From assembly GCA_965656375.1 (NCBI GenBank), contig CBFHKH010000001.1, positions 281,319 through 345,318 on the forward strand: a DNA stretch of 64,000 nucleotides. The letters are read 5' to 3'. Made by a program: the position numbers and the translations under genes. Position 1 is the first letter of the stretch. Every line of letters starts with the position of its first letter. A model generated the notes under the pieces. It was not told the DNA's origin. It did no database searches and saw only the letters and a list, made by a program, of their open reading frames with translations. Of this stretch, positions 20,997 through 51,968 are shown one piece after another. The DNA is from Minisyncoccia bacterium (GTDB taxonomy: Bacteria > Patescibacteriota > Minisyncoccia > Phycocordibacterales > UBA9973).

Positions 20997-22487
20997 CTAC
21001 AATGCGGTTACATGTATTTTTGAAATATCAGTCGGGAGGGATTTCTGCCATGGTGGGAAGAGCGTTGCACGCGCTTCGGCAATACCGGGATCAGTTTTAA
21101 AAAGTGATGGCAACATATCTTTTGAAACTCCTACTATTCGTGCTTTAAAATTCTCTATATCAGGGTGCCAAATTGCCGTTGCCTTCCCCGTTAAATTAAA
21201 TGCAACAGTATGCATATCTTTAGTAATGATCTGATTTTCATTCAAGAATGAGAATTTAAGTTTTGCTATTTCTGGTATATCAATTTCCTTTCGTTCAATA
21301 GTGCCGATGCTAGATAATTTATTTTTGATGAGAGCATCTTCTAAATCACTTTCTTTGAAAATTATTGCGGCAAGCGTCCCAGTGATACCGACGGTAGCTT
21401 CGGGGGTTGAAGATCTCACTGCCTCATCGACAGTATAAGTAAAGGTAAATGCATCAGGATAGAGAATATATCCTTTTGGTACCTCTGCATTTACTTTCTT
21501 TATTAGTCTACTTTTAAAAGTTGATTGTGCTGTTGCGCTTACATTTCCCTTCTCGGTTGCACCAAGGATATAGGCAAGTCCTTGTGCACCGCCCTTGATA
21601 GGCTGTACTGCTTTCGCATATATTTTCTTGAATTTAGTTGTACCTTTGTAGGCAGAGATTGTAAAATCAGTCGAAGTGCTATTGTAGGCATCTCCGGGTA
21701 GAAATGCAGTTATCCTAACATCTACAGTCCCCGGAATTATTTGAGTGCCAGAAGTTTTATATCCAGGAATTGTAACTTTAGTATCAGTGAGGTAGGTTTT
21801 GCCATTTGCATCTGCCAAATGAGAACGCGGAGCAATAGTAACAGGCGTCGTACTGAATTCATTATAGAGGGTTACTGTACCTGTTGCATTACGTTTGGCA
21901 TCTTCAGTTTCTGTTAAAACAATATTCTTAGCATCACTATCAGTGACAATCATTATTTCAAATGAGATATCGGTATCAGTATTTTTTGAGGCTATGAATT
22001 CTGTAGCGTCGAGAACAAGCTCTTCATGTTTCTCTTGTATGACAACAGTTGTTCTTTCAAAATACATTGCGCCATGATAAAGAACCGCTAGGAGTATTGA
22101 AAACATAAAAAGGAAAACTATAGATTTGCGGACACTTTTCTTGTTTCCTCTCATTCGTGGAGTTCCTGTAAGCCGCTTAACAGGTTCTTCCTTTCTTATT
22201 TCGATAGTATCTCGAGGTACTTTTGCTTGCCATCCAGATGTAAAGACTGCAGCTTTTTGTAATGATTCTCTGTCAGAAAATCCTTTCTCAGAAGTTTCAG
22301 TTGGGATCTGGACGACTTCGCGTGCAGGCATTTCTTTCTCTTGTGGTTTTATTTGGACAGGAGGTACTCCGCGTACTTTCTCTAACTCAATTCTGCTCGG
22401 TGTACCTGGAGCTTTAATTTCCGTATTTGAAGCTTTTACGTTTTTTCTGCTTGTAAGCTTCATATCCATCATTATTTTCTTTGACAT
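20997..22487 (-). CDS. hypothetical bitopic membrane protein (about 115-aa basic cytoplasmic N-terminus, one TM, about 360-aa external domain); possibly PilN/PilO-like partner of the adjacent ATPase
   Basis: topology only; directly downstream of and near-overlapping the actin-like ATPase gene. Confidence 0.45.
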   Translation of the reverse strand: MSKKIMMDMKLTSRKNVKASNTEIKAPGTPSRIELEKVRGVPPVQIKPQEKEMPAREVVQIPTETSEKGFSDRESLQKAAVFTSGWQAKVPRDTIEIRKEEPVKRLTGTPRMRGNKKSVRKSIVFLFMFSILLAVLYHGAMYFERTTVVIQEKHEELVLDATEFIASKNTDTDISFEIMIVTDSDAKNIVLTETEDAKRNATGTVTLYNEFSTTPVTIAPRSHLADANGKTYLTDTKVTIPGYKTSGTQIIPGTVDVRITAFLPGDAYNSTSTDFTISAYKGTTKFKKIYAKAVQPIKGGAQGLAYILGATEKGNVSATAQSTFKSRLIKKVNAEVPKGYILYPDAFTFTYTVDEAVRSSTPEATVGITGTLAAIIFKESDLEDALIKNKLSSIGTIERKEIDIPEIAKLKFSFLNENQIITKDMHTVAFNLTGKATAIWHPDIENFKARIVGVSKDMLPSLFKTDPGIAEARATLFPPWQKSLPTDISKIHVTAL

Positions 22488-22488
22488 A

Positions 22489-23673
22489 TTATTTATATTC
22501 TTTCTTTCTCATTATTGCTATTGCTTCTATCATCAAGAATGGATCACAGAGTCCATCTTTGACTCTACACATATTCAAAAATTCTGGACCTTCAAGAGTT
22601 ACCACTGTAGAGGTATGATCGGCAACCATTGACTGAATATATTCTTCATTGCGTACAACGTTTGCAAACCAATCACGAATATCGTTATCAGCAGTGAGGA
22701 ATATTGTCCCTGGTAGTGTGAGCGTATGGGGAAGCGTGCCAATACACTGGCGAAACGCTTCACTCCATGAATTTTCAATTGATTTAAAAAGTGGGCCGAG
22801 TTTATCTTTAAATTTCTCTGATATCACACCTTTTGTATGGAGCGCAAATAATTCTTTTGCATCACGGAGCTCTATCTCAAGTTTGCTACACATATATTTA
22901 AAAAATGTCTTCTTTCCAAAAGGAAATGAGAGCGTCGCCCGTAGTATCCCTTTTGACACAATGCCAACATCTGTGATTTCACCATTAATATCAAGCAAGA
23001 GATAAGAATCTGGAGTCACATACCTGTCACGAACAGCGATAAATGATGCAACCATAAATGAAGAGAATGTGACTGGTTTTGAGTGATATGTTTTTGAAAG
23101 TGTTTTTTTAATTCTTTCAAGACATATCTTTGGAGAAAGCGAAATAATCATATTCATTTCAATAGCTTTAGTCTTTTTTCCGAATGGATCAAGCACTGGA
23201 TAGCCATTGAGTGATACCCCCATAATATGGTGCTCTATTACTTCAGGTGCGCTCTCTACTCCACCATATTTTTTTTGGTACATTTCGGTGAGTGATACAA
23301 TTTCTTTTTGAAAGAGTTCATCTCCGAGGCGCCTTGTAAATACGAATGGAACTTCTTTAGACATCTTGATCGTTCGAGTTTCTGATATATACCATGGAGA
23401 TGCAACTACACAGACAATCTCATCAGGTGCACCTAGCTTTGCTTTATATAGTTCTGATGCGGTTGTATTAAGTGCGGTAAGCATATCACTCAAGAATATA
23501 TTGAAGTCGAGCACATTTTGAAATGTAATCTGAGTGCGAGCAGACTTTATAATTTCAGGAACTCCGGTACCATCATCTGGTATACGAGCGAGAGCTCCAC
23601 CAACAGATCCTGAACCAATATCGAAAATCGCCACGAGGCGCTCTTTGTGTGATGATGAAGAAAACAATCCCAT
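22489..23673 (-). CDS. actin-like (ASKHA) ATPase, PilM/FtsA-like
   Basis: phosphate-1 AIFDIGSGSVGGAL and phosphate-2 LLLDINGEITDVGIV (DIGGGTTD-type) motifs; a bona fide FtsA is encoded separately at 41873. Confidence 0.5.
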   Translation of the reverse strand: MGLFSSSSHKERLVAIFDIGSGSVGGALARIPDDGTGVPEIIKSARTQITFQNVLDFNIFLSDMLTALNTTASELYKAKLGAPDEIVCVVASPWYISETRTIKMSKEVPFVFTRRLGDELFQKEIVSLTEMYQKKYGGVESAPEVIEHHIMGVSLNGYPVLDPFGKKTKAIEMNMIISLSPKICLERIKKTLSKTYHSKPVTFSSFMVASFIAVRDRYVTPDSYLLLDINGEITDVGIVSKGILRATLSFPFGKKTFFKYMCSKLEIELRDAKELFALHTKGVISEKFKDKLGPLFKSIENSWSEAFRQCIGTLPHTLTLPGTIFLTADNDIRDWFANVVRNEEYIQSMVADHTSTVVTLEGPEFLNMCRVKDGLCDPFLMIEAIAIMRKKEYK

Positions 23674-28790: not shown

Positions 28791-30086
28791 TTACATCGGC
28801 AAATTGGAAGGTGGCTTTGCAATCTTTGACTCAATTCGCTTGAAGCTTGGAGTCTCTGAGACCATGCCTGGGAAGTGGAAAATTGTTGCAAGTTCTCGAG
28901 AAGACATTACGAATATTTGTGGAGAGCCAGAAGGAAAGAAAGCAGCAAGGACCTTTGGATATTTAAATGAATATTGGATAGGTGGGTGGAAAAATGTACG
29001 CATTCGAAAGAAATCGAGTGTGCGCTTTTTATATTTAGTAAGAGCAAGCCCTGTAGGATCAGACCATGGTGCATCGAATTGTGTAGAGTTGATACGATTA
29101 AGTTCGTTAACATCAGGCTGTGCATATTGACGCCAGATAAGACGTGAATTACGTCTTAAATTCATAAATTGTTCCTCAGTGCAGAGATTTTTATTCGAGA
29201 GTGTCACCACTCGAATGCCGCAATCGAAATGGATCAAACTCGCATTTTCTACCATTACTTTTACTTTATTCTTGAGTGGTTCTGGAGTACGCATATCCAT
29301 ACCCATAGTATCTCCATTATCATTTCTTTGGATACGAGTATACGGTAAGAGCATATTTTCAATAAATTCATATGTAGCGGCATAGAAATCAATGTGTTTG
29401 CCGGTGTGGTGACTATGATATGTCTTTATGTTCTGACGTATGACAATTTGCACCCACATTTGCTGACCACGAGGCAGTGACCCTAAAAATTCTATAACTG
29501 GTGTAATCGGATCGATCTTGTATTCTTCTTTGGTGCCGCTGTCCATTTCTTCCATGTCTCGATAGGTACGGATCGGCAAGAAATCTTCTTTCATCTTGGT
29601 GTATTCGCACCCCCACATATCCCACTCTCCATTTTTTCGATATTGAGGAACATGGAGTGTATAATCTTCGGCTTCAACGACTTTCGCTTGCGGATACTGC
29701 GCGTAGATCTGTGTTTCTACGAGCTCCCGCATACGAGACGGAGTACGTATAAAGAAGTGAACTTTGCCATCAATGGATGCCATCTCAAGTGAGAACCAGA
29801 ACCATGGTGCACCTTGGATGTATTGCTCCCAAAAACCTTTTATACTTTTTTGATAGAACGCATTTGAGAATATTAACTCCATGGCTGCCGGAGATTTAAT
29901 GACATCGCGTGGAACATGAATCTCGAGAAGCACCCACTTGATACCCATGATGAAGCGCTCCTGGCGATAGTGATGCCAGAGTCTAAGCGCGATCATGGTC
30001 AGTGGAATAGGCATCAGATACCCGATCGTGACGAGAAGAATTTGCACAAGATTAAAACTATGAGTAGCAAAGAAATCTGAAAGCAT
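28791..30086 (-). CDS. hypothetical 431-aa membrane-anchored protein
   Basis: N-terminal TM segments, large soluble domain, no assignable motif. Confidence 0.5.
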   Translation of the reverse strand: MLSDFFATHSFNLVQILLVTIGYLMPIPLTMIALRLWHHYRQERFIMGIKWVLLEIHVPRDVIKSPAAMELIFSNAFYQKSIKGFWEQYIQGAPWFWFSLEMASIDGKVHFFIRTPSRMRELVETQIYAQYPQAKVVEAEDYTLHVPQYRKNGEWDMWGCEYTKMKEDFLPIRTYRDMEEMDSGTKEEYKIDPITPVIEFLGSLPRGQQMWVQIVIRQNIKTYHSHHTGKHIDFYAATYEFIENMLLPYTRIQRNDNGDTMGMDMRTPEPLKNKVKVMVENASLIHFDCGIRVVTLSNKNLCTEEQFMNLRRNSRLIWRQYAQPDVNELNRINSTQFDAPWSDPTGLALTKYKKRTLDFFRMRTFFHPPIQYSFKYPKVLAAFFPSGSPQIFVMSSRELATIFHFPGMVSETPSFKRIESKIAKPPSNLPM

Positions 30087-46277: not shown

Positions 46278-46349
46278 GGCCCTATCGTCTAACGGTTAGG
46301 ACATCGGCTTTTCAAGCCGGTAATCCGGGTTCGATTCCCGGTAGGGTCA
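46278..46349 (+). tRNA. tRNA-Glu (anticodon UUC)
   Basis: cloverleaf ggcccta...tagggtc acceptor, anticodon loop ttTTCaa, T-loop ttcgatt. Confidence 0.85.
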
Positions 46350-46361
46350 CAGGTGCTGTAG

Positions 46362-46448
46362 GGAAAGGTGGCTGAGTGGTTGAAGGCACCGCTCTCGAAA
46401 AGCGGCAGGGGTGAAAGCTCCTCGAGGGTTCAAATCCCTCCCATTCCG
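46362..46448 (+). tRNA. tRNA-Ser (anticodon CGA), long variable arm
   Basis: D-arm gctgagtggttgaaggc, anticodon loop ctCGAaa, extended variable arm, T-loop ttcaaat; one acceptor mismatch. Confidence 0.8.
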
Positions 46449-46458
46449 CAGGAAAAAC

Positions 46459-46531
46459 GCGCGGTTAGCTCAGTTGGTAGAGCGTCCCCTTGACGTGGGG
46501 AAGGCCACAGGTTCGAATCCTGTATCGCGCA
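46459..46531 (+). tRNA. tRNA-Val (anticodon GAC)
   Basis: acceptor gcgcggt/atcgcgc, D-arm agctcagttggtagagc, anticodon loop ttGACgt, T-loop ttcgaat. Confidence 0.85.
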
Positions 46532-46737
46532 CAAATATATCTCCTTTTGCCCATATTTAGCAAGCTATTCTGGCTTGACTTTTAAGGTTATTTATGCTAT
46601 TATATTCAAGTAATTCGTTCTTTGAAAATTTAAAGCTTAGGTCTTGTTTATGAGGACAATTCTCGCCTTCCCTTCATTATTTGAAAGGTTAGCGTTGTCT
46701 TCATAAACAAAAATTCTAAACTTTTAAAATAAACACT

Positions 46738-47238
46738 ATGTCATCACACAACACTTCACACGCAACAGAAACCGAAGCTTCAGATAAAAGCATACGGGCA
46801 ACTGTACCAGAACCAAAATTGTCAATTGTATTTGGAATAATTATCGGTATCATACTACTAATTATCACATTTGTGGTTGTCAAGAACCTGTATAAAAACA
46901 GGCCACAGGAATACTTCCTAACAAAAATCGGGTACGGTGGATATCTGGAAATTGAGGTTAGACCAAACCACACTCCATACAAGATATTCCTAACACCGAG
47001 CCGGGATTTCCATCAGATCTGGTCAGAAGACGAACTTGAAGTAATCACTCTAAGCAAAAGCAAGAGTGAAACAAGAAGAATACGTGGTAGATCCATAGTT
47101 AATGGATCATCATTCTCTTCCCATGCTGACTTCAATGCAATCTTGCTAAAGAACGAAACAAATCATTCAATCACCTTCAAAATCAGCAAGTGTCGTTCTC
47201 TCGAGGACAGCATCCCTAATTTTGGAATTAAAAACTAA
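46738..47238 (+). CDS. hypothetical single-TM membrane protein
   Basis: ORF with one TM (IVFGIIIGIILLIITFVVV). Confidence 0.45.
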   Translation: MSSHNTSHATETEASDKSIRATVPEPKLSIVFGIIIGIILLIITFVVVKNLYKNRPQEYFLTKIGYGGYLEIEVRPNHTPYKIFLTPSRDFHQIWSEDELEVITLSKSKSETRRIRGRSIVNGSSFSSHADFNAILLKNETNHSITFKISKCRSLEDSIPNFGIKN

Positions 47239-48289
47239 TCACATGCAAACATTTTTTTTAAATTTCGAAATTTTTATTTGTATAGCTGTAATCTTAGCAA
47301 CAGGTAAGATAGCATTCCCAACCTACACCTATACGTACAAATTTTCTTTGATCGTATGGTGTATTGGAATATGCATTTTTGCCTTTCAGCTTATCAGCAT
47401 CTCTTCAAACATTGATGTTGAACAAACCATTGATGCTGTACAGATTGTATCGTGCGTTGTGTCCTTAGCAATATGTAGTTTTACTGCGTATTTAAACGGA
47501 AGACAACTCACATACAAAACTATGACTATAGTTGTCTCCCGGGTAACCAACAAAGCAGTAGGAGTTATCGGTCCAGGAATAGGTTCTATAGATCCGTGGT
47601 TTGAAATCACCGCAAAACCTATTAGCCTGAAAGCTGAAGAAGTTCGCATTAAAGAAACACCATGGATGCAAACAGGTACGCGAGGCATCTTAGCTCGAAT
47701 ACTTGAAATTAGCATTATGCTTCAATGTAAAGGTAACAGTGATTCTAAATCTAAAGGTAACAGTGATCCTAAGAGTATAATTTCTCTCTATAACATTGTA
47801 GGTGGAGTAGAAACTGTTATAGAGCGCATTAAAAACTTCGCTGATGAATTCTTTTTGGATGAAGTTGGTGTTGTGGAAGCTCAAAAATTAGATACTGGTA
47901 GAAAGAAATTCAGAGAAGCTATGCGGATAAAATTAGAAAAAGAAATAAATCATTTTTGCTGTGAGAATGGATATCCCTATATAGTTAAGCAGATATTGAT
48001 AGGTGATACCGAACTTTCTAAACAGTACTACGATGCATTGGCCGAACTTGCTTTGACCATCCTAAGGGAAAATGCATTGAATAAGAGCGCAGAGATGACT
48101 GGTGAGAGGGTTAGAGCTCTTGGAAAAGTTTTATTGCCTACTGGCAGTGAATCACAGCAGTTTGAAGCTGCTCAGATAACACTGAAAGAAATCAAGAAAA
48201 CAATTGAGGATAAGAAATTTGGAGTTGATGCTGATATGGCAAAACTTATCAAATTGATTGTTCCAGTTCTTTTCAAGTCTCGCAAGTAA
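47222..48289 (+). CDS. hypothetical polytopic membrane protein with in-frame 24-nt tandem duplication (KGNSDSKS/KGNSDPKS)
   Basis: several N-terminal TM helices; duplication at 47729-47776. Confidence 0.45.
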   Translation: MELKTNHMQTFFLNFEIFICIAVILATGKIAFPTYTYTYKFSLIVWCIGICIFAFQLISISSNIDVEQTIDAVQIVSCVVSLAICSFTAYLNGRQLTYKTMTIVVSRVTNKAVGVIGPGIGSIDPWFEITAKPISLKAEEVRIKETPWMQTGTRGILARILEISIMLQCKGNSDSKSKGNSDPKSIISLYNIVGGVETVIERIKNFADEFFLDEVGVVEAQKLDTGRKKFREAMRIKLEKEINHFCCENGYPYIVKQILIGDTELSKQYYDALAELALTILRENALNKSAEMTGERVRALGKVLLPTGSESQQFEAAQITLKEIKKTIEDKKFGVDADMAKLIKLIVPVLFKSRK

Positions 48290-48302: not shown

Positions 48303-48334
48303 TAAGTCCCAGCACACGCTGGGACTTTTTTATT
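48303..48334. terminator. bidirectional hairpin agtcccagc-acac-gctgggact + T6 between convergent genes
   Basis: perfect 9-bp GC-rich stem. Confidence 0.7.
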
Positions 48335-50213
48335 TACGAGCTTCGAGTGCTACCCAGTAATCATAATTTCCAGTCCAGGTATCTTTTTGATAGTAACGTT
48401 CTTCGAGAATAACAGGAGACTGTATATCATCAACTGTCTCAACTCCTGCTTCATTGGCAATTCTGATAAGCGCGTTTTTTATAGCAATGTTTCTTGCCGC
48501 AGAGTATCCAGTACTCACACCAGAACCAATTGCTCTATAATAATTTGCATCAGATGTATATGTTGATTTGAGTGGATCTTTCTTACCACTTTCATTGCTA
48601 ACTTCTGGTATTCCCCCACTTACACTCCCTATTGGCTTGAGTGTACAATCTGCTGTTCTACCCCCTTTTATAGGCGCTCGTGCATCCATCCAAACATAAT
48701 AATTCTTCGTTTCTTTATCATATGCAGTAAGCATTCCATACTGTGCAGGTAAGTTCTGAGCAGTTTTTTCTTCAAGTAGATTATTGTCAGAAAGGAACGC
48801 TTTTCGCATTTTTGTTTTTATTTCCGTGAGAGCTCCAAACTCAGTAGTGCTTTTACCATAATCTTCCTTCCTCCAGCAAAGTGCGTTTGGTTCGTATTTT
48901 TGAAGAAACGGACTTTTTGTAAAATCTTTTATAGTGTTTTTAAGTACAGTCTGGCTGAGGTTAATCTCATCACTTGTAGCAGCAATCTTTGAGAACAAGG
49001 TAGATTCTGGCATCTCTCGCGCTTCTTTGCCTTTTACAACTGTAAGCTTAGATGCTGAACAATCCGATACCGTACCTGTACTTTTTGGTGCTCTCGCATC
49101 AAGCCACACATAGTATTTACTCGTTTTATTATTATATAAAATTATAGTCGTATAGAGTATCGGGTAATTTGCTTTGATCACCCCTGTTGTATCAGCGATC
49201 TTTGCATATTCTGCCTTCGCGCGTGTTCGTGCTTTTTCAAGAGCATCATATTCTGTTTCTGCCTCGCCCGGAACAGGCATCACCCAGCAGAGATTACTTG
49301 GTTCGTACGTTGCAAAGGGGCTCGTTGTATAGAACGTAAGCGGCAAATCTGGAGTCTCTCCGCTACTACTAATATTCTGCGATGAAAACACTGCTGCTTG
49401 GGGAATGACTGGAGCCTCTTTTAAAACCTTAAGAGTATTACAATTTTTCTCCATAGTCCCTTGTCCAATCGGAGCTCTGACATCAAGCCACGCATAATAC
49501 GTCCTTGTAGTCACGTCATACAACACCTTCGATCCAAACACTACAGGATAAGCTTTTTTACTCACATCTTTGTCGGAGATGTTATTAATTCGAAGGTATT
49601 CAGATCGAGCGAACTTCTTTACTTGATCAAGTGCATCATATTCTGTATTTGATTTCATTGGATATGCTTCTCTCCAACAAAGCGCATCTTTTTGATATGT
49701 TGGGAATGGGCTTGTAGTGAATGTTGCTTGTGGGAGCTTGGGAGTACCTGTAATAGTGCTAATGTCTTTGACGTCTGTCGTATCTCCAAAGCCAAGACCA
49801 GTGCCAGTATTATCTGCAATATCTCTATCCTTAACATCCACACCAGTAACTACAAAGTCGCCGTTATTATTAACTTTTATCTTATTCTCTCCGATAGTAG
49901 AGAGAATGATTTTCATAATACCGAATACAGCGGTCATAATAAAAAGACCAAAGACTCCCCATATCATAATTGACTTACTTTTCTTATGGACTTCTTCATT
50001 ACCCGGCGAAAGCAGGTAACGGGTAAGTCCATAAAGAAAATACGCCATAGCACACGCAAACATGAAAATAATGATAGGGTTAATAATAACCCTATCAATA
50101 CTTTTCATAAGAGTTGTAAGACTCGCTTCTGCAACTGGAATGATTTGAAAATCAACCATGGATGTTTGATTAGCAGATGACGCCTGGACCAGGGATACAA
50201 GGGATTGCATCAC
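48330..50213 (-). CDS. large surface protein: N-terminal VirB2/TrbC-like pilin module fused to a triplicated about 120-aa Cys/Trp-containing ectodomain plus distinct C-terminal domain
   Basis: N-terminal ...FLYGLTRYLLSPGNEEVHKKSKSIMIWGVFGLFIMTAVFGI like the four upstream paralogs; three repeats with ...LCW...TEYDAL...YY(A/V)W(L/M)D(V/A)RAP; true start may be the internal MVDFQ. Confidence 0.6.
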   Translation of the reverse strand: MMQSLVSLVQASSANQTSMVDFQIIPVAEASLTTLMKSIDRVIINPIIIFMFACAMAYFLYGLTRYLLSPGNEEVHKKSKSIMIWGVFGLFIMTAVFGIMKIILSTIGENKIKVNNNGDFVVTGVDVKDRDIADNTGTGLGFGDTTDVKDISTITGTPKLPQATFTTSPFPTYQKDALCWREAYPMKSNTEYDALDQVKKFARSEYLRINNISDKDVSKKAYPVVFGSKVLYDVTTRTYYAWLDVRAPIGQGTMEKNCNTLKVLKEAPVIPQAAVFSSQNISSSGETPDLPLTFYTTSPFATYEPSNLCWVMPVPGEAETEYDALEKARTRAKAEYAKIADTTGVIKANYPILYTTIILYNNKTSKYYVWLDARAPKSTGTVSDCSASKLTVVKGKEAREMPESTLFSKIAATSDEINLSQTVLKNTIKDFTKSPFLQKYEPNALCWRKEDYGKSTTEFGALTEIKTKMRKAFLSDNNLLEEKTAQNLPAQYGMLTAYDKETKNYYVWMDARAPIKGGRTADCTLKPIGSVSGGIPEVSNESGKKDPLKSTYTSDANYYRAIGSGVSTGYSAARNIAIKNALIRIANEAGVETVDDIQSPVILEERYYQKDTWTGNYDYWVALEARK

Positions 50214-50526
50214 TGTGTAGCTGTTCAGAACCTACGCCAAATGTGTTTGTAACAAGGCGGATGATTCCCCAGAATGCAACGATAACAAAGAGACCGATAA
50301 GACCCTGGATGATTTTCGCACGTGACTTTTTCTTTGCTTCTTCGTCTGATGAAAGAGTATACTGGATGACTCCCCAGATAAAGTACACAACAGCAAGCGT
50401 AATGAGCACAGGAATAAGAGTAGCCAAGATCTTGTTTATCACTGTGATGACAGAGAACGCATCAGCAGCAAAAGCCAGGAATGGCACGGAACCAAGAACA
50501 ACACCGAATGAAATGATTTTCTTCAT
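50170..50526 (-). CDS. small T4SS-pilin-like (VirB2/TrbC-like) membrane protein
   Basis: signal peptide, hydrophobic helix, SSDEEAKKKSRAK loop, second helix IIQGLIGLFVIVAFWGII. Confidence 0.55.
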   Translation of the reverse strand: MKKIISFGVVLGSVPFLAFAADAFSVITVINKILATLIPVLITLAVVYFIWGVIQYTLSSDEEAKKKSRAKIIQGLIGLFVIVAFWGIIRLVTNTFGVGSEQLHSDAIPCIPGPGVIC

Positions 50527-50648
50527 ATATTAAACGTAATAATAAACTTAATAATAACTGTATCTATTCCCGCCGACCGCAGGCAATGAGATGGGACCTC
50601 TATAGTACATATCTAGTATATCATACCTGATAGCAAGATTTGCAAGGG

Positions 50649-51029
50649 TTATTGGGAAAGCTGTGGAATAAGAGTTTTGATCCCGAACGTATTTGAAAGA
50701 ACTCCAACAAGTCCCCACATGCTCACCATGACAAAAAGCGTAATGAGTCCCCAGATCATATATGTCTTCCCTTTCTTGCGCTTTTCTTCATTGTCAGGAT
50801 TCAAGAAAAATTGAATGATGCCCCAGATGAATCCTGCTGTCGCAAGTGTAAAGAGGAATGGTATGATGAACTGGATGATGGTGCAGCTTCCCCATTTGAA
50901 GATATGCCCGAGGCTTGTAAACGGTGGTGATACCTGGCTACAATTTGCAGTAGTTCTATCAGCTGCCGCAGTTACAAGCGGAACTGATGCATACGCTAAA
51001 ACTCCGAGTGTTCTAAATGTATTTTTCAT
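50649..51029 (-). CDS. small T4SS-pilin-like (VirB2/TrbC-like) membrane protein
   Basis: signal peptide MKNTFRTLGVLAYASVPLVTAAA; helix...FFLNPDNEEKRKKGKTYMIWGLITLFVMVSMWG. Confidence 0.55.
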   Translation of the reverse strand: MKNTFRTLGVLAYASVPLVTAAADRTTANCSQVSPPFTSLGHIFKWGSCTIIQFIIPFLFTLATAGFIWGIIQFFLNPDNEEKRKKGKTYMIWGLITLFVMVSMWGLVGVLSNTFGIKTLIPQLSQ

Positions 51030-51543
51030 CTTTAATGCGTTTGGTTGTGCTTCTAATTTCATCGACCGTTCCCTTAATAGCGTTTGCTATGACATACGAG
51101 CCAAGCAGGAGCGCAGCACCAACAAGTGTGTAGAGAAGTGCTTTCTTTGCTTTGGTAAGCTTCTCACTATTACCTGCTGCTGTCACAAAAAGGAATCCAG
51201 AATATATGATGGCAAGAGCTACGATAGGTATGCCTACAGTTAATACAAAATTAAGAATAGTCTCTATAAAAGAAGGAATATCTTCTACGCCTGCGATCGG
51301 ATTCTTAATACCAGTTTCAATTTTGATTCCATCCCCATTCTTTTTAGTTTGGGTATTATCAATATTTGCTGAATTTTGTTGTGTGTTATCGATATCAGCA
51401 GTAGGACATTTAGGTTCTCCTGGTTTACCACAAGCATTTACCATTGTTCCAGGCATGAAAAACACAAGAGCGATAACGAAGATGAGACTATACTGTACCA
51501 ATAAACTTCCTATTGTGTGTTTAGTTTGATTTATTTTTTTCAT
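51013..51543 (-). CDS. T4SS-pilin-like membrane protein with longer Asn/Gln/Thr-rich N-terminal region
   Basis: ...VGIPIVALAIIYSGFLFVTAAGNSEKLTKAKKALLYTLVGAALLLGSYVIA. Confidence 0.5.
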   Translation of the reverse strand: MKKINQTKHTIGSLLVQYSLIFVIALVFFMPGTMVNACGKPGEPKCPTADIDNTQQNSANIDNTQTKKNGDGIKIETGIKNPIAGVEDIPSFIETILNFVLTVGIPIVALAIIYSGFLFVTAAGNSEKLTKAKKALLYTLVGAALLLGSYVIANAIKGTVDEIRSTTKRIKDEKYI

Positions 51544-51560
51544 AATTTACAAATTAATAA

Positions 51561-51968
51561 TTAACGTATTAAAAAAGTTTCCCCTTTGAAACCAAGCGTT
51601 ACAAAGATTGTCTTGATAATAAGCCATGCTGCAAGAGCAATTATATACCCTATAATAACATTCTTTATAATTTTCTTTGCTTTTGTAACTTTTTCGGAAC
51701 TACCGCCTGAGAATAACAATTGCGCTCCAGCAATACAAAGCGCAAGTGCTGCAAGTGGTGCAGCAATCTTAAAGAGAAGAAAATCAATAACATTATTAAT
51801 GAGCTCGATAAAGGAATTAAAATTACATTGCTCTGTAATCGTTCGTCTTCCATCTGACTCAGTTATAATCTTCCCACAATCAGGAACCAACCCTGCTGCA
51901 TGTACAATAAGATATGGAGCAAAGATAATCACGAATGCAATGATGAATCCAAATAGTTTTCTTTTCAT
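51561..51968 (-). CDS. small T4SS-pilin-like (VirB2/TrbC-like) membrane protein
   Basis: signal peptide; IAAPLAALALCIAGAQLLFSGGSSEKVTKAKKIIKNVIIGYIIALAAWLII. Confidence 0.55.
   Translation of the reverse strand: MKRKLFGFIIAFVIIFAPYLIVHAAGLVPDCGKIITESDGRRTITEQCNFNSFIELINNVIDFLLFKIAAPLAALALCIAGAQLLFSGGSSEKVTKAKKIIKNVIIGYIIALAAWLIIKTIFVTLGFKGETFLIR

Follow-up and report, generated by a model that had tools for sequence, protein, structure and literature searches.

VirB2-like pilin arrays are widespread in Patescibacteria, where they may build a pilus mediating exchange with the host, and these pilins are essential in Southlakia epibionticum (PMC12102498, PMC10633639, PMC12857230). Reported arrays contain 2-11 pilin genes (PMC12102498). 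In the excerpts of these three papers, the pilins are treated as small proteins and pilins carrying globular domains are not mentioned. Here we describe a fusion-pilin gene located at 48330..50159 of the minus strand in a 64,000-nucleotide stretch (hereafter, the window) of contig CBFHKH010000001.1 from a Minisyncoccia bacterium (assembly GCA_965656375.1). Its product consists of a VirB2-like pilin hairpin, a linker, three Cys-containing repeats and a C-terminal module. With moderate confidence, we favour the reading that it is a modular pilin of the type IV secretion system (T4SS) type found in Patescibacteria, bearing contact or spacer domains that are displayed outward. What is new at this locus is a narrow sequence family of known fold, joined in tandem to a known pilin family in a way not described before.

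The closest described systems for the pilin portion are the VirB2-like arrays of Patescibacteria, such as the essential six-pilin array of Ca. Southlakia epibionticum, which belong to the same PF18895 family; the array described here consists of five divergent tandem paralogues. It differs from other Patescibacteria arrays in that its last pilin (in some genomes, the first) bears 1-6 globular domains, and no virB4 gene adjoins it within the window. The closest systems for the domain portion are the LPP20/SHS2 proteins (Helicobacter pylori Lpp20, HP1454, Campylobacter FlgP, Vibrio FlgT and the dodecins; PF02169, IPR024952), which have the same strand-helix-strand-strand core. FlgP, Lpp20, FlgT and dodecin share a modified SHS2 fold in which a helix lies across one face of a three-stranded sheet (PMC12222027). 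A second likeness is an extracytoplasmic location, which is probable for the fusion pilin. Unlike the LPP20 proteins, the fusion pilin is anchored by a pilin hairpin rather than a lipid and shows no significant sequence match to them; furthermore, its repeats are arranged in tandem (1-5, plus a Cys-free copy) and carry an SPF..Y segment and a Cys extension.

Architecture of the fusion pilin

The mechanical open reading frame (ORF) for this gene spans 48330..50213 of the minus strand and encodes 627 aa, reaching a GTG codon at 50213. From comparison with homologues and with the upstream gene, the true start is almost certainly not this GTG but the ATG at 50159, giving a protein of 609 aa (stop codon 48330-48332), for two reasons. 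First, the start of each homologue (68/68) is equivalent to M19 in the 627-aa numbering, and the homologues share the opening MxxFxIIPxAEAS. Second, the ATG lies 10 nt past the stop codon of the upstream gene, whereas starting at the GTG would create a 44-nt overlap with it. The N-terminus of the protein is MVDFQIIPVAEAS, followed by the pilin hairpin, and it contains no lipobox. The leader (50124-50159, minus strand; MxxFxIIPxAEA|S) is conserved in all homologues but is very short at approximately 12 residues: it aligns with no more than the final part of the normal signal peptides that the small pilins carry, lacks a charged n-region and has a short hydrophobic core.

The leader MVDFQIIPVAEA and the hairpin together occupy 49875..50159 (minus strand) and were assigned from a sub-threshold PF18895 match, BLASTP and hydropathy. 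In the 609-aa form, hydropathy peaks at residues 25-46 and 64-88, and the two hydrophobic helices are joined by the positively charged loop SPGNEEVHKKSKS. An earlier note on this DNA, made from the sequence alone, had called the protein a pilin fusion, and BLASTP agrees: the N-terminal 120 aa are 31% identical over 85 aa to the adjacent 118-aa PF18895 pilin (E-value: 6e-14). Several orthologues also have a precomputed PF18895 match. The N-terminal region is thus both homologous to members of the pilin family and organized as a two-helix hairpin with a charged loop. It is followed by a linker rich in Gly, Asp, Thr and Asn (49740..49874, minus strand) that is approximately 31% identical among orthologues.

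The three repeats follow on the minus strand at 49404..49739 (repeat 1), 49020..49349 (repeat 2) and 48606..48941 (repeat 3). Self-BLAST of the whole protein returned the identity match only, and the repeats became visible when the protein was cut into segments that were compared pairwise by BLASTP. Repeats 1 and 2 are 38.8% identical over 121 aa (E-value: 1.6e-28), repeats 1 and 3 are 40.4% identical over 89 aa (E-value: 1.3e-21) and repeats 2 and 3 are 34.3% identical over 105 aa (E-value: 3.2e-20). With pairwise E-values of 1e-20 to 1e-28, these comparisons substantiate the proposal that a domain of 110-120 aa with LCW, TEY-AL and YYxWxDxRAP motifs is present in triplicate. In the 627-aa numbering, the SPF motif occurs at residues 168, 298 and 434, LCW at 178, 308 and 445, and RAP at 246, 374 and 512; the resulting period of 130-137 aa corresponds to a domain of approximately 110 aa and a linker of 15-30 aa. 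Tandem Repeats Finder returned 0 rows, and because no repeat is present at the DNA level, the duplications must be old. For the same reason, recent duplication or recombination-driven cassette switching within the fusion gene was considered and found to be unsupported.

Each repeat had been described as having one invariant cysteine, but two were found: Cys179 and Cys258 in repeat 1, Cys309 and Cys385 in repeat 2, and Cys446 and Cys523 in repeat 3 (627-aa numbering). Exactly two are present in 139/140 repeats of the family. The first lies at the start of strand 1 and the second in the C-terminal extension of the domain, and the two probably form an intradomain disulfide. The C-terminal module (48333..48602, minus strand) lacks cysteine, as do all of its counterparts in the family (0/76 modules). 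Immediately beyond the gene, a GC-rich hairpin with a 10-bp stem (48304..48327), detected by consensus scan only, separates the 3' end of the fusion gene from that of a convergent gene at 47222-48289, and is likely a terminator.

Fold of the repeats and the C-terminal module

The AlphaFold2 model of repeat 1, built from a 76-sequence alignment, has a predicted local distance difference test score (pLDDT) of 97 and a predicted template modelling score (pTM) of 0.86, and contains the elements E21-30, H33-51, E66-75, E80-90, H96-100 and E105-107. The model of the C-terminal module (60 sequences; pLDDT 96, pTM 0.86) contains E21-30, H33-52, E64-70 and E80-89. Both models thus have a strand-helix-strand-strand (beta-alpha-beta-beta) core at equal positions, with a three-stranded sheet and a helix on one of its faces, as in SHS2-like folds. 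Over this shared core, the repeat carries an N-terminal SPF..Y segment and the C-terminal extension that bears the second cysteine. An Ig-like or PKD all-beta fold was also considered and rejected, as both models place a 19-20-residue helix on a three-stranded sheet and no Pfam Ig or PKD match was found.

The C-terminal portion had been set apart as a module distinct from the repeats, but this distinction is not upheld. When profiles of the repeat and the C-terminal module were compared using hhalign, they aligned over 81-82 columns, essentially end to end, with E-values of 2.5e-5 (probability 75%) and 4.7e-5 (probability 68%). In these alignments, SPF..Y is paired with P[LF]..Y, the central helices fall together and YYxWxDxRAP is paired with YDYWVAxE. 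Based on the hhalign results and the common AlphaFold2 topology, with the same layout of elements at the same positions, the C-terminal stretch of approximately 90 aa is a diverged, Cys-free copy of the repeat domain.

Foldseek returned no match reaching an E-value of 1e-3 for either module; nonetheless, the structural neighbours are coherent. For the repeat, the top matches in the PDB are dodecins (3onr, E-value: 0.013), HP1454 comes 14th, and lower ranks include classical SHS2 proteins (archease, MTH1598 and the Rpb7-like A43). In the BFVD, the first match of the repeat is a phage protein annotated as "LPP20 lipoprotein" (E-value: 0.0087), and a second phage lipoprotein aligns with a template modelling (TM) score of 0.56 and a root mean square deviation (rmsd) of 2.4 Å. 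For the C-terminal module, the PDB neighbours are H. pylori HP1454 (E-value: 0.02, probability 1.0, rmsd 3.1 Å) followed by Francisella FTT1539c, Campylobacter jejuni flagellar scaffold 9HMF chain A and many dodecins. From the two predicted models, all four modules are assigned to the SHS2/LPP20/FlgP/dodecin fold type, a likeness that holds at the level of fold only.

At the level of sequence, Pfam identified no family (LPP20 included) in any of 76 repeats (0/76), and neither the repeat nor the C-terminal module matches NCBIfam or the sequences of the PDB. The C-terminal module matches Pfam LPP20 (PF02169) with an E-value of 0.039 and 14.8 bits, which is under the 25.9-bit gathering threshold, and among 60 such modules 2/60 match LPP20 and 2/60 weakly match FlgT_N. 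The modules fall outside PF02169 on both the score threshold and the lipobox cysteine. The earlier note's statement that the domain has no recognizable match therefore stands for the sequence databases but not for the fold, where the BFVD phage LPP20 lipoprotein and the PDB dodecins are found, while the "vague LPP20 look" that it noticed in the C-terminal module was right at the level of fold and extends to all four modules. The modules constitute an LPP20/SHS2-fold sequence family that has not been described before and is narrowly distributed.

Because dodecins, which bind flavins or calcium, occur most often among the PDB neighbours of the two models, the domains might be involved in small-ligand binding or storage, capturing a metabolite from the environment or host in a dodecin-like manner; a gene for a solute-binding protein also adjoins the array. 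This is very improbable given that the structural alignments have TM-scores of only 0.35-0.43 with 13-23% identity and that no sequence match to dodecin families was found. Furthermore, a dodecin is a single domain of approximately 65-70 aa that functions as a flavin-binding dodecamer, whereas the domains described here are 90-112 aa in length and are arranged in tandem on the stalk of a membrane protein.

Distribution, copy number and array position

A search of 5.8 billion proteins identified 68 homologues, all of them unnamed or annotated as "hypothetical"; those that carry a source name are all labelled Patescibacteria. When the repeat profile was searched exhaustively with HMMER against 1.84 billion cluster representatives, just 39 proteins were recovered, indicating a very narrow domain family. 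Genome records with the domain are assigned to Candidatus Paceibacteria or Paceibacterota, with some third-party assemblies labelled Saccharibacteria. One apparent relative, P0085 (1147 aa, 19 partial matches), was rejected as a translated simple repeat. When the homologues were analyzed with hidden Markov models of the repeat and of the C-terminal module, one architecture was found throughout: a pilin-like hairpin, a linker, 1-5 repeats and one C-terminal module, which is the constant element of the family. One subgroup has three C-terminal modules.

In the window, four small T4SS_pilin genes (50170..51968, minus strand; individually 51561-51968, 51013-51543, 50649-51062 and 50170-50526) lie directly upstream of the fusion gene. 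All four pass the PF18895 cut-off (E-values: 6e-12, 1e-6, 1.5e-8 and 1.4e-8) and, together with the fusion gene in last position, they form a five-gene array that keeps to one strand and has short intergenic gaps. Among the small pilins, the mechanical ORFs of the second (51013-51543) and the third (50649-51062) overlap by 50 nt, and a later ATG start (MKNTFRTL...) is probable for the third; the 176-aa small pilin has a short internal direct repeat, DIDNTQQNSANIDNTQ, ahead of its hairpin. In every relative locus examined, the genes follow the order gyrA, methyltransferase, solute-binding protein, small pilins, fusion pilin, and synteny of the array is conserved in loci L001, L003, L005 and L014.

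At this orthologous array position, the number of repeats is 0 in L014 (a 281-aa protein with the C-terminal module only), 1 in P0055, 2 in P0031, 3 in the protein of the window and 5 in P0002. Clustering of 140 repeats produced two subfamilies, one consisting of the last repeats of multi-repeat proteins together with sole repeats (32 and 22 members, respectively) and the other of first and middle repeats together (33 and 25). Repeat 3 of the window protein belongs to the "last/only repeat" subfamily, and repeat 2 has the middle repeats of orthologues as its nearest relatives; for all three repeats, the closest relatives are repeats at the same position in orthologues rather than one another. 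Because last repeats cluster with sole repeats and same-position repeats are nearest, the repeat adjoining the C-terminal module looks like the ancestral copy, and the proximal repeats represent an older expansion whose members have since been gained and lost. The clustering gave no sign of recent duplication or concerted evolution among the repeats.

Pairwise comparison of 15 orthologues with three repeats gave mean identities of 0.71 (pilin), 0.43-0.45 (repeats), 0.53 (C-terminal module) and about 0.3 (linkers). Consistent with a divergence that is concentrated downstream of the pilin, all of the differences (17/17) between P0009 and P0091, which belong to one 90% cluster, lie past residue 138.

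The constancy and better conservation of the C-terminal module would fit an envelope scaffold, in which the domains oligomerize into a collar or sheath that surrounds the T4SS channel or pilus base, spanning the cell wall, and does not touch the host. FlgP and FlgT build flagellar-motor rings with the same fold, dodecins are obligate oligomers, the structural neighbours of the C-terminal module include 9hmf_A and HP1454, and the weak FlgT_N matches of two of the 60 modules point in the same direction. However, the hairpin insert characteristic of the ring-forming FlgP/FlgT subgroup is absent from both modules: the corresponding segment is an 11-14-residue loop with no predicted hairpin or strand. 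A range of 0-5 copies at the orthologous locus would also be odd for a structure of fixed geometry, and we regard a scaffold as quite unlikely.

The domain is also found at the other end of a pilin. Two remote matches of the exhaustive search, P0088 and P0089, consist of a signal peptide, one Cys/Trp domain, a linker and a C-terminal PF18895 pilin. Further searching identified six clusters of such reversed fusions, all with PF18895 and one named "pilin" by NCBI. In L014, the reversed fusion (P0096, 8001-8975) is the first gene of the syntenic array, and the last pilin has no Cys/Trp repeat. These results suggest that the Cys/Trp domain can be carried by the pilin at either end of the array. 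In the locus of P0067, the first pilin of the array is enlarged to 347 aa. VirB2 proteins have both termini on the outer side, and fusion at either end of the pilin fits a topology in which the two termini share that side.

Several homologues carry additional segments. P0077 contains a Kazal_1 domain (37 bits, relative to a cut-off of 21) in the stalk between the pilin and the repeat; Kazal_1 is typically a secreted, disulfide-rich module. P0069 and P0076 have a common domain of approximately 100 aa between the pilin and the repeat with no Pfam match, P0078 has a Cys-rich tail beyond the C-terminal module and P0068 (a fragment without the pilin end) has a long repetitive stretch rich in Gln, Ser and Ala between the repeats and the C-terminal module.

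That the repeats are an artefact of chance similarity, low complexity, mis-assembly or a non-gene ORF can be dismissed with near certainty: the repeats match one another with E-values no higher than 1e-20, the 68 homologues of the same architecture come from independent assemblies, the models are confident and synteny is conserved.

Proposed display and function, and genomic setting

The first ~95 residues form the two-helix membrane hairpin usual for the pilin family, followed by a flexible linker. In the mechanism that we propose, the string of domains would be displayed outside the cell, either on the membrane or on a T4SS-type pilus or its end, because both termini of VirB2-type pilins lie outward of the membrane and the filament. 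There it would most likely serve as a contact module (for adhesion or recognition) and spacer toward the host-cell surface, with the number of repeats (0-5 in orthologues) setting reach or valency. The paired cysteines of the repeats and the Kazal_1 insert in the stalk of P0077 both hint at an extracytoplasmic location. The more rapid evolution of the part that would be displayed, with identities of 0.43-0.53 for the domains as compared to 0.71 for the pilin, is also consistent with a role in contact.

Pilus-associated contact proteins are known from conjugative systems, and include VirB5 at the pilus tip and the PrgB-type adhesins of Gram-positive systems. We know of no homology between the fusion pilin and either of these. 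The role proposed for it is the same, namely that of a surface-exposed contact element of a T4SS filament, but in this case the element and a pilin paralogue would be covalently one protein. A comparable arrangement is that of peptides attached to F-pilin at its exposed C-terminus.

Several points weigh against this proposal. First, the fusion pilin itself matches PF18895 with only 17.7 bits (E-value: 0.0038), under the cut-off of 26.6 bits. Second, no VirB4, VirD4 or VirB6 was found among the scanned ORFs of the window. Third, the conserved N-terminus is too short for a normal Sec signal peptide. Fourth, faster divergence of the domains could instead reflect weaker constraint. Fifth, to our knowledge, a pilus has never been seen in any Patescibacterium. 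Sixth, a VirB2-type filament would have difficulty accommodating a 500-aa appendage on each of its subunits, which would limit the fusion pilin to a minor, tip or base component at most.

A rival reading is a membrane-anchored envelope protein unconnected with a pilus. The hairpin would then serve as an anchor only, and the domains would have a housekeeping surface role such as wall spacing or the protection or organization of the envelope. No T4SS ATPase is encoded within 64 kb, the array lies among housekeeping genes (gyrA, methyltransferase, solute-binding protein and FtsZ) in all relatives and, as PMC12102498 notes, many pilin genes are not near virB4. We nevertheless consider a mere anchor to be unlikely, as the hairpin is clearly paralogous to the neighbouring PF18895 pilins and the domain is joined to pilins in both orientations and is found only there, with the exception of the short protein P0087.

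In the window, the array is flanked on one side by genes for an S1 protein, a metallo-beta-lactamase-fold protein, GyrA, a methyltransferase and a solute-binding protein, and on the other side by genes for a nucleotidyltransferase, a thioredoxin-reductase-like protein, FtsZ and FtsA. Two membrane-protein genes of the plus strand (46738-47238, 166 aa, and 47222-48289, 355 aa) converge on the fusion gene; their family assignment is limited to a weak SPFH/Band_7 match (E-value: 0.089). L001, L003 and L005, unlike L014, have gene pairs of similar size in this position, so the pair may be associated with the pilin array. Between the nucleotidyltransferase and membrane-protein genes lie three clustered tRNA genes (Glu-UUC, Ser-CGA and Val-GAC; 46278-46532, plus strand). 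In the P0067 locus (JGI 3300050046), genes for a serine recombinase, a Schlafen/AlbA_2 protein and a pP_pnuc_1 protein immediately follow the fusion pilin in place of the membrane-protein pair, which suggests that a mobile or defence element has been inserted where the array ends. Elsewhere in the window, ORFs of 496, 394 and 431 aa at 20997-23673 and 28791-30086 (minus strand) have no Pfam match at an E-value of 1e-5.

VirB2-like arrays of Patescibacteria are essential in the one system tested and have been proposed to form the sole pilus of a monoderm T4SS. A pilin paralogue bearing a variable number of folded surface domains, probably braced by disulfides, offers a concrete candidate for the host-contact element, and the confident models make these domains easy to express and test. 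If their function is merely structural, the family would be a modest addition to domain catalogues. A bolder version of our proposal, which we hold only tentatively and think rather doubtful, is that first and last pilins with N- and C-terminal arrays of LPP20-like domains form a host-recognition tip or coat of the filament, in which the gain and loss of domains (0-5) adapts reach and specificity to different host envelopes. If this is true, the fusion pilin, as the first modular "adhesin-pilin" in the VirB2 class, would provide a direct handle on host engagement by cells of the candidate phyla radiation (CPR) outside the Saccharibacteria.

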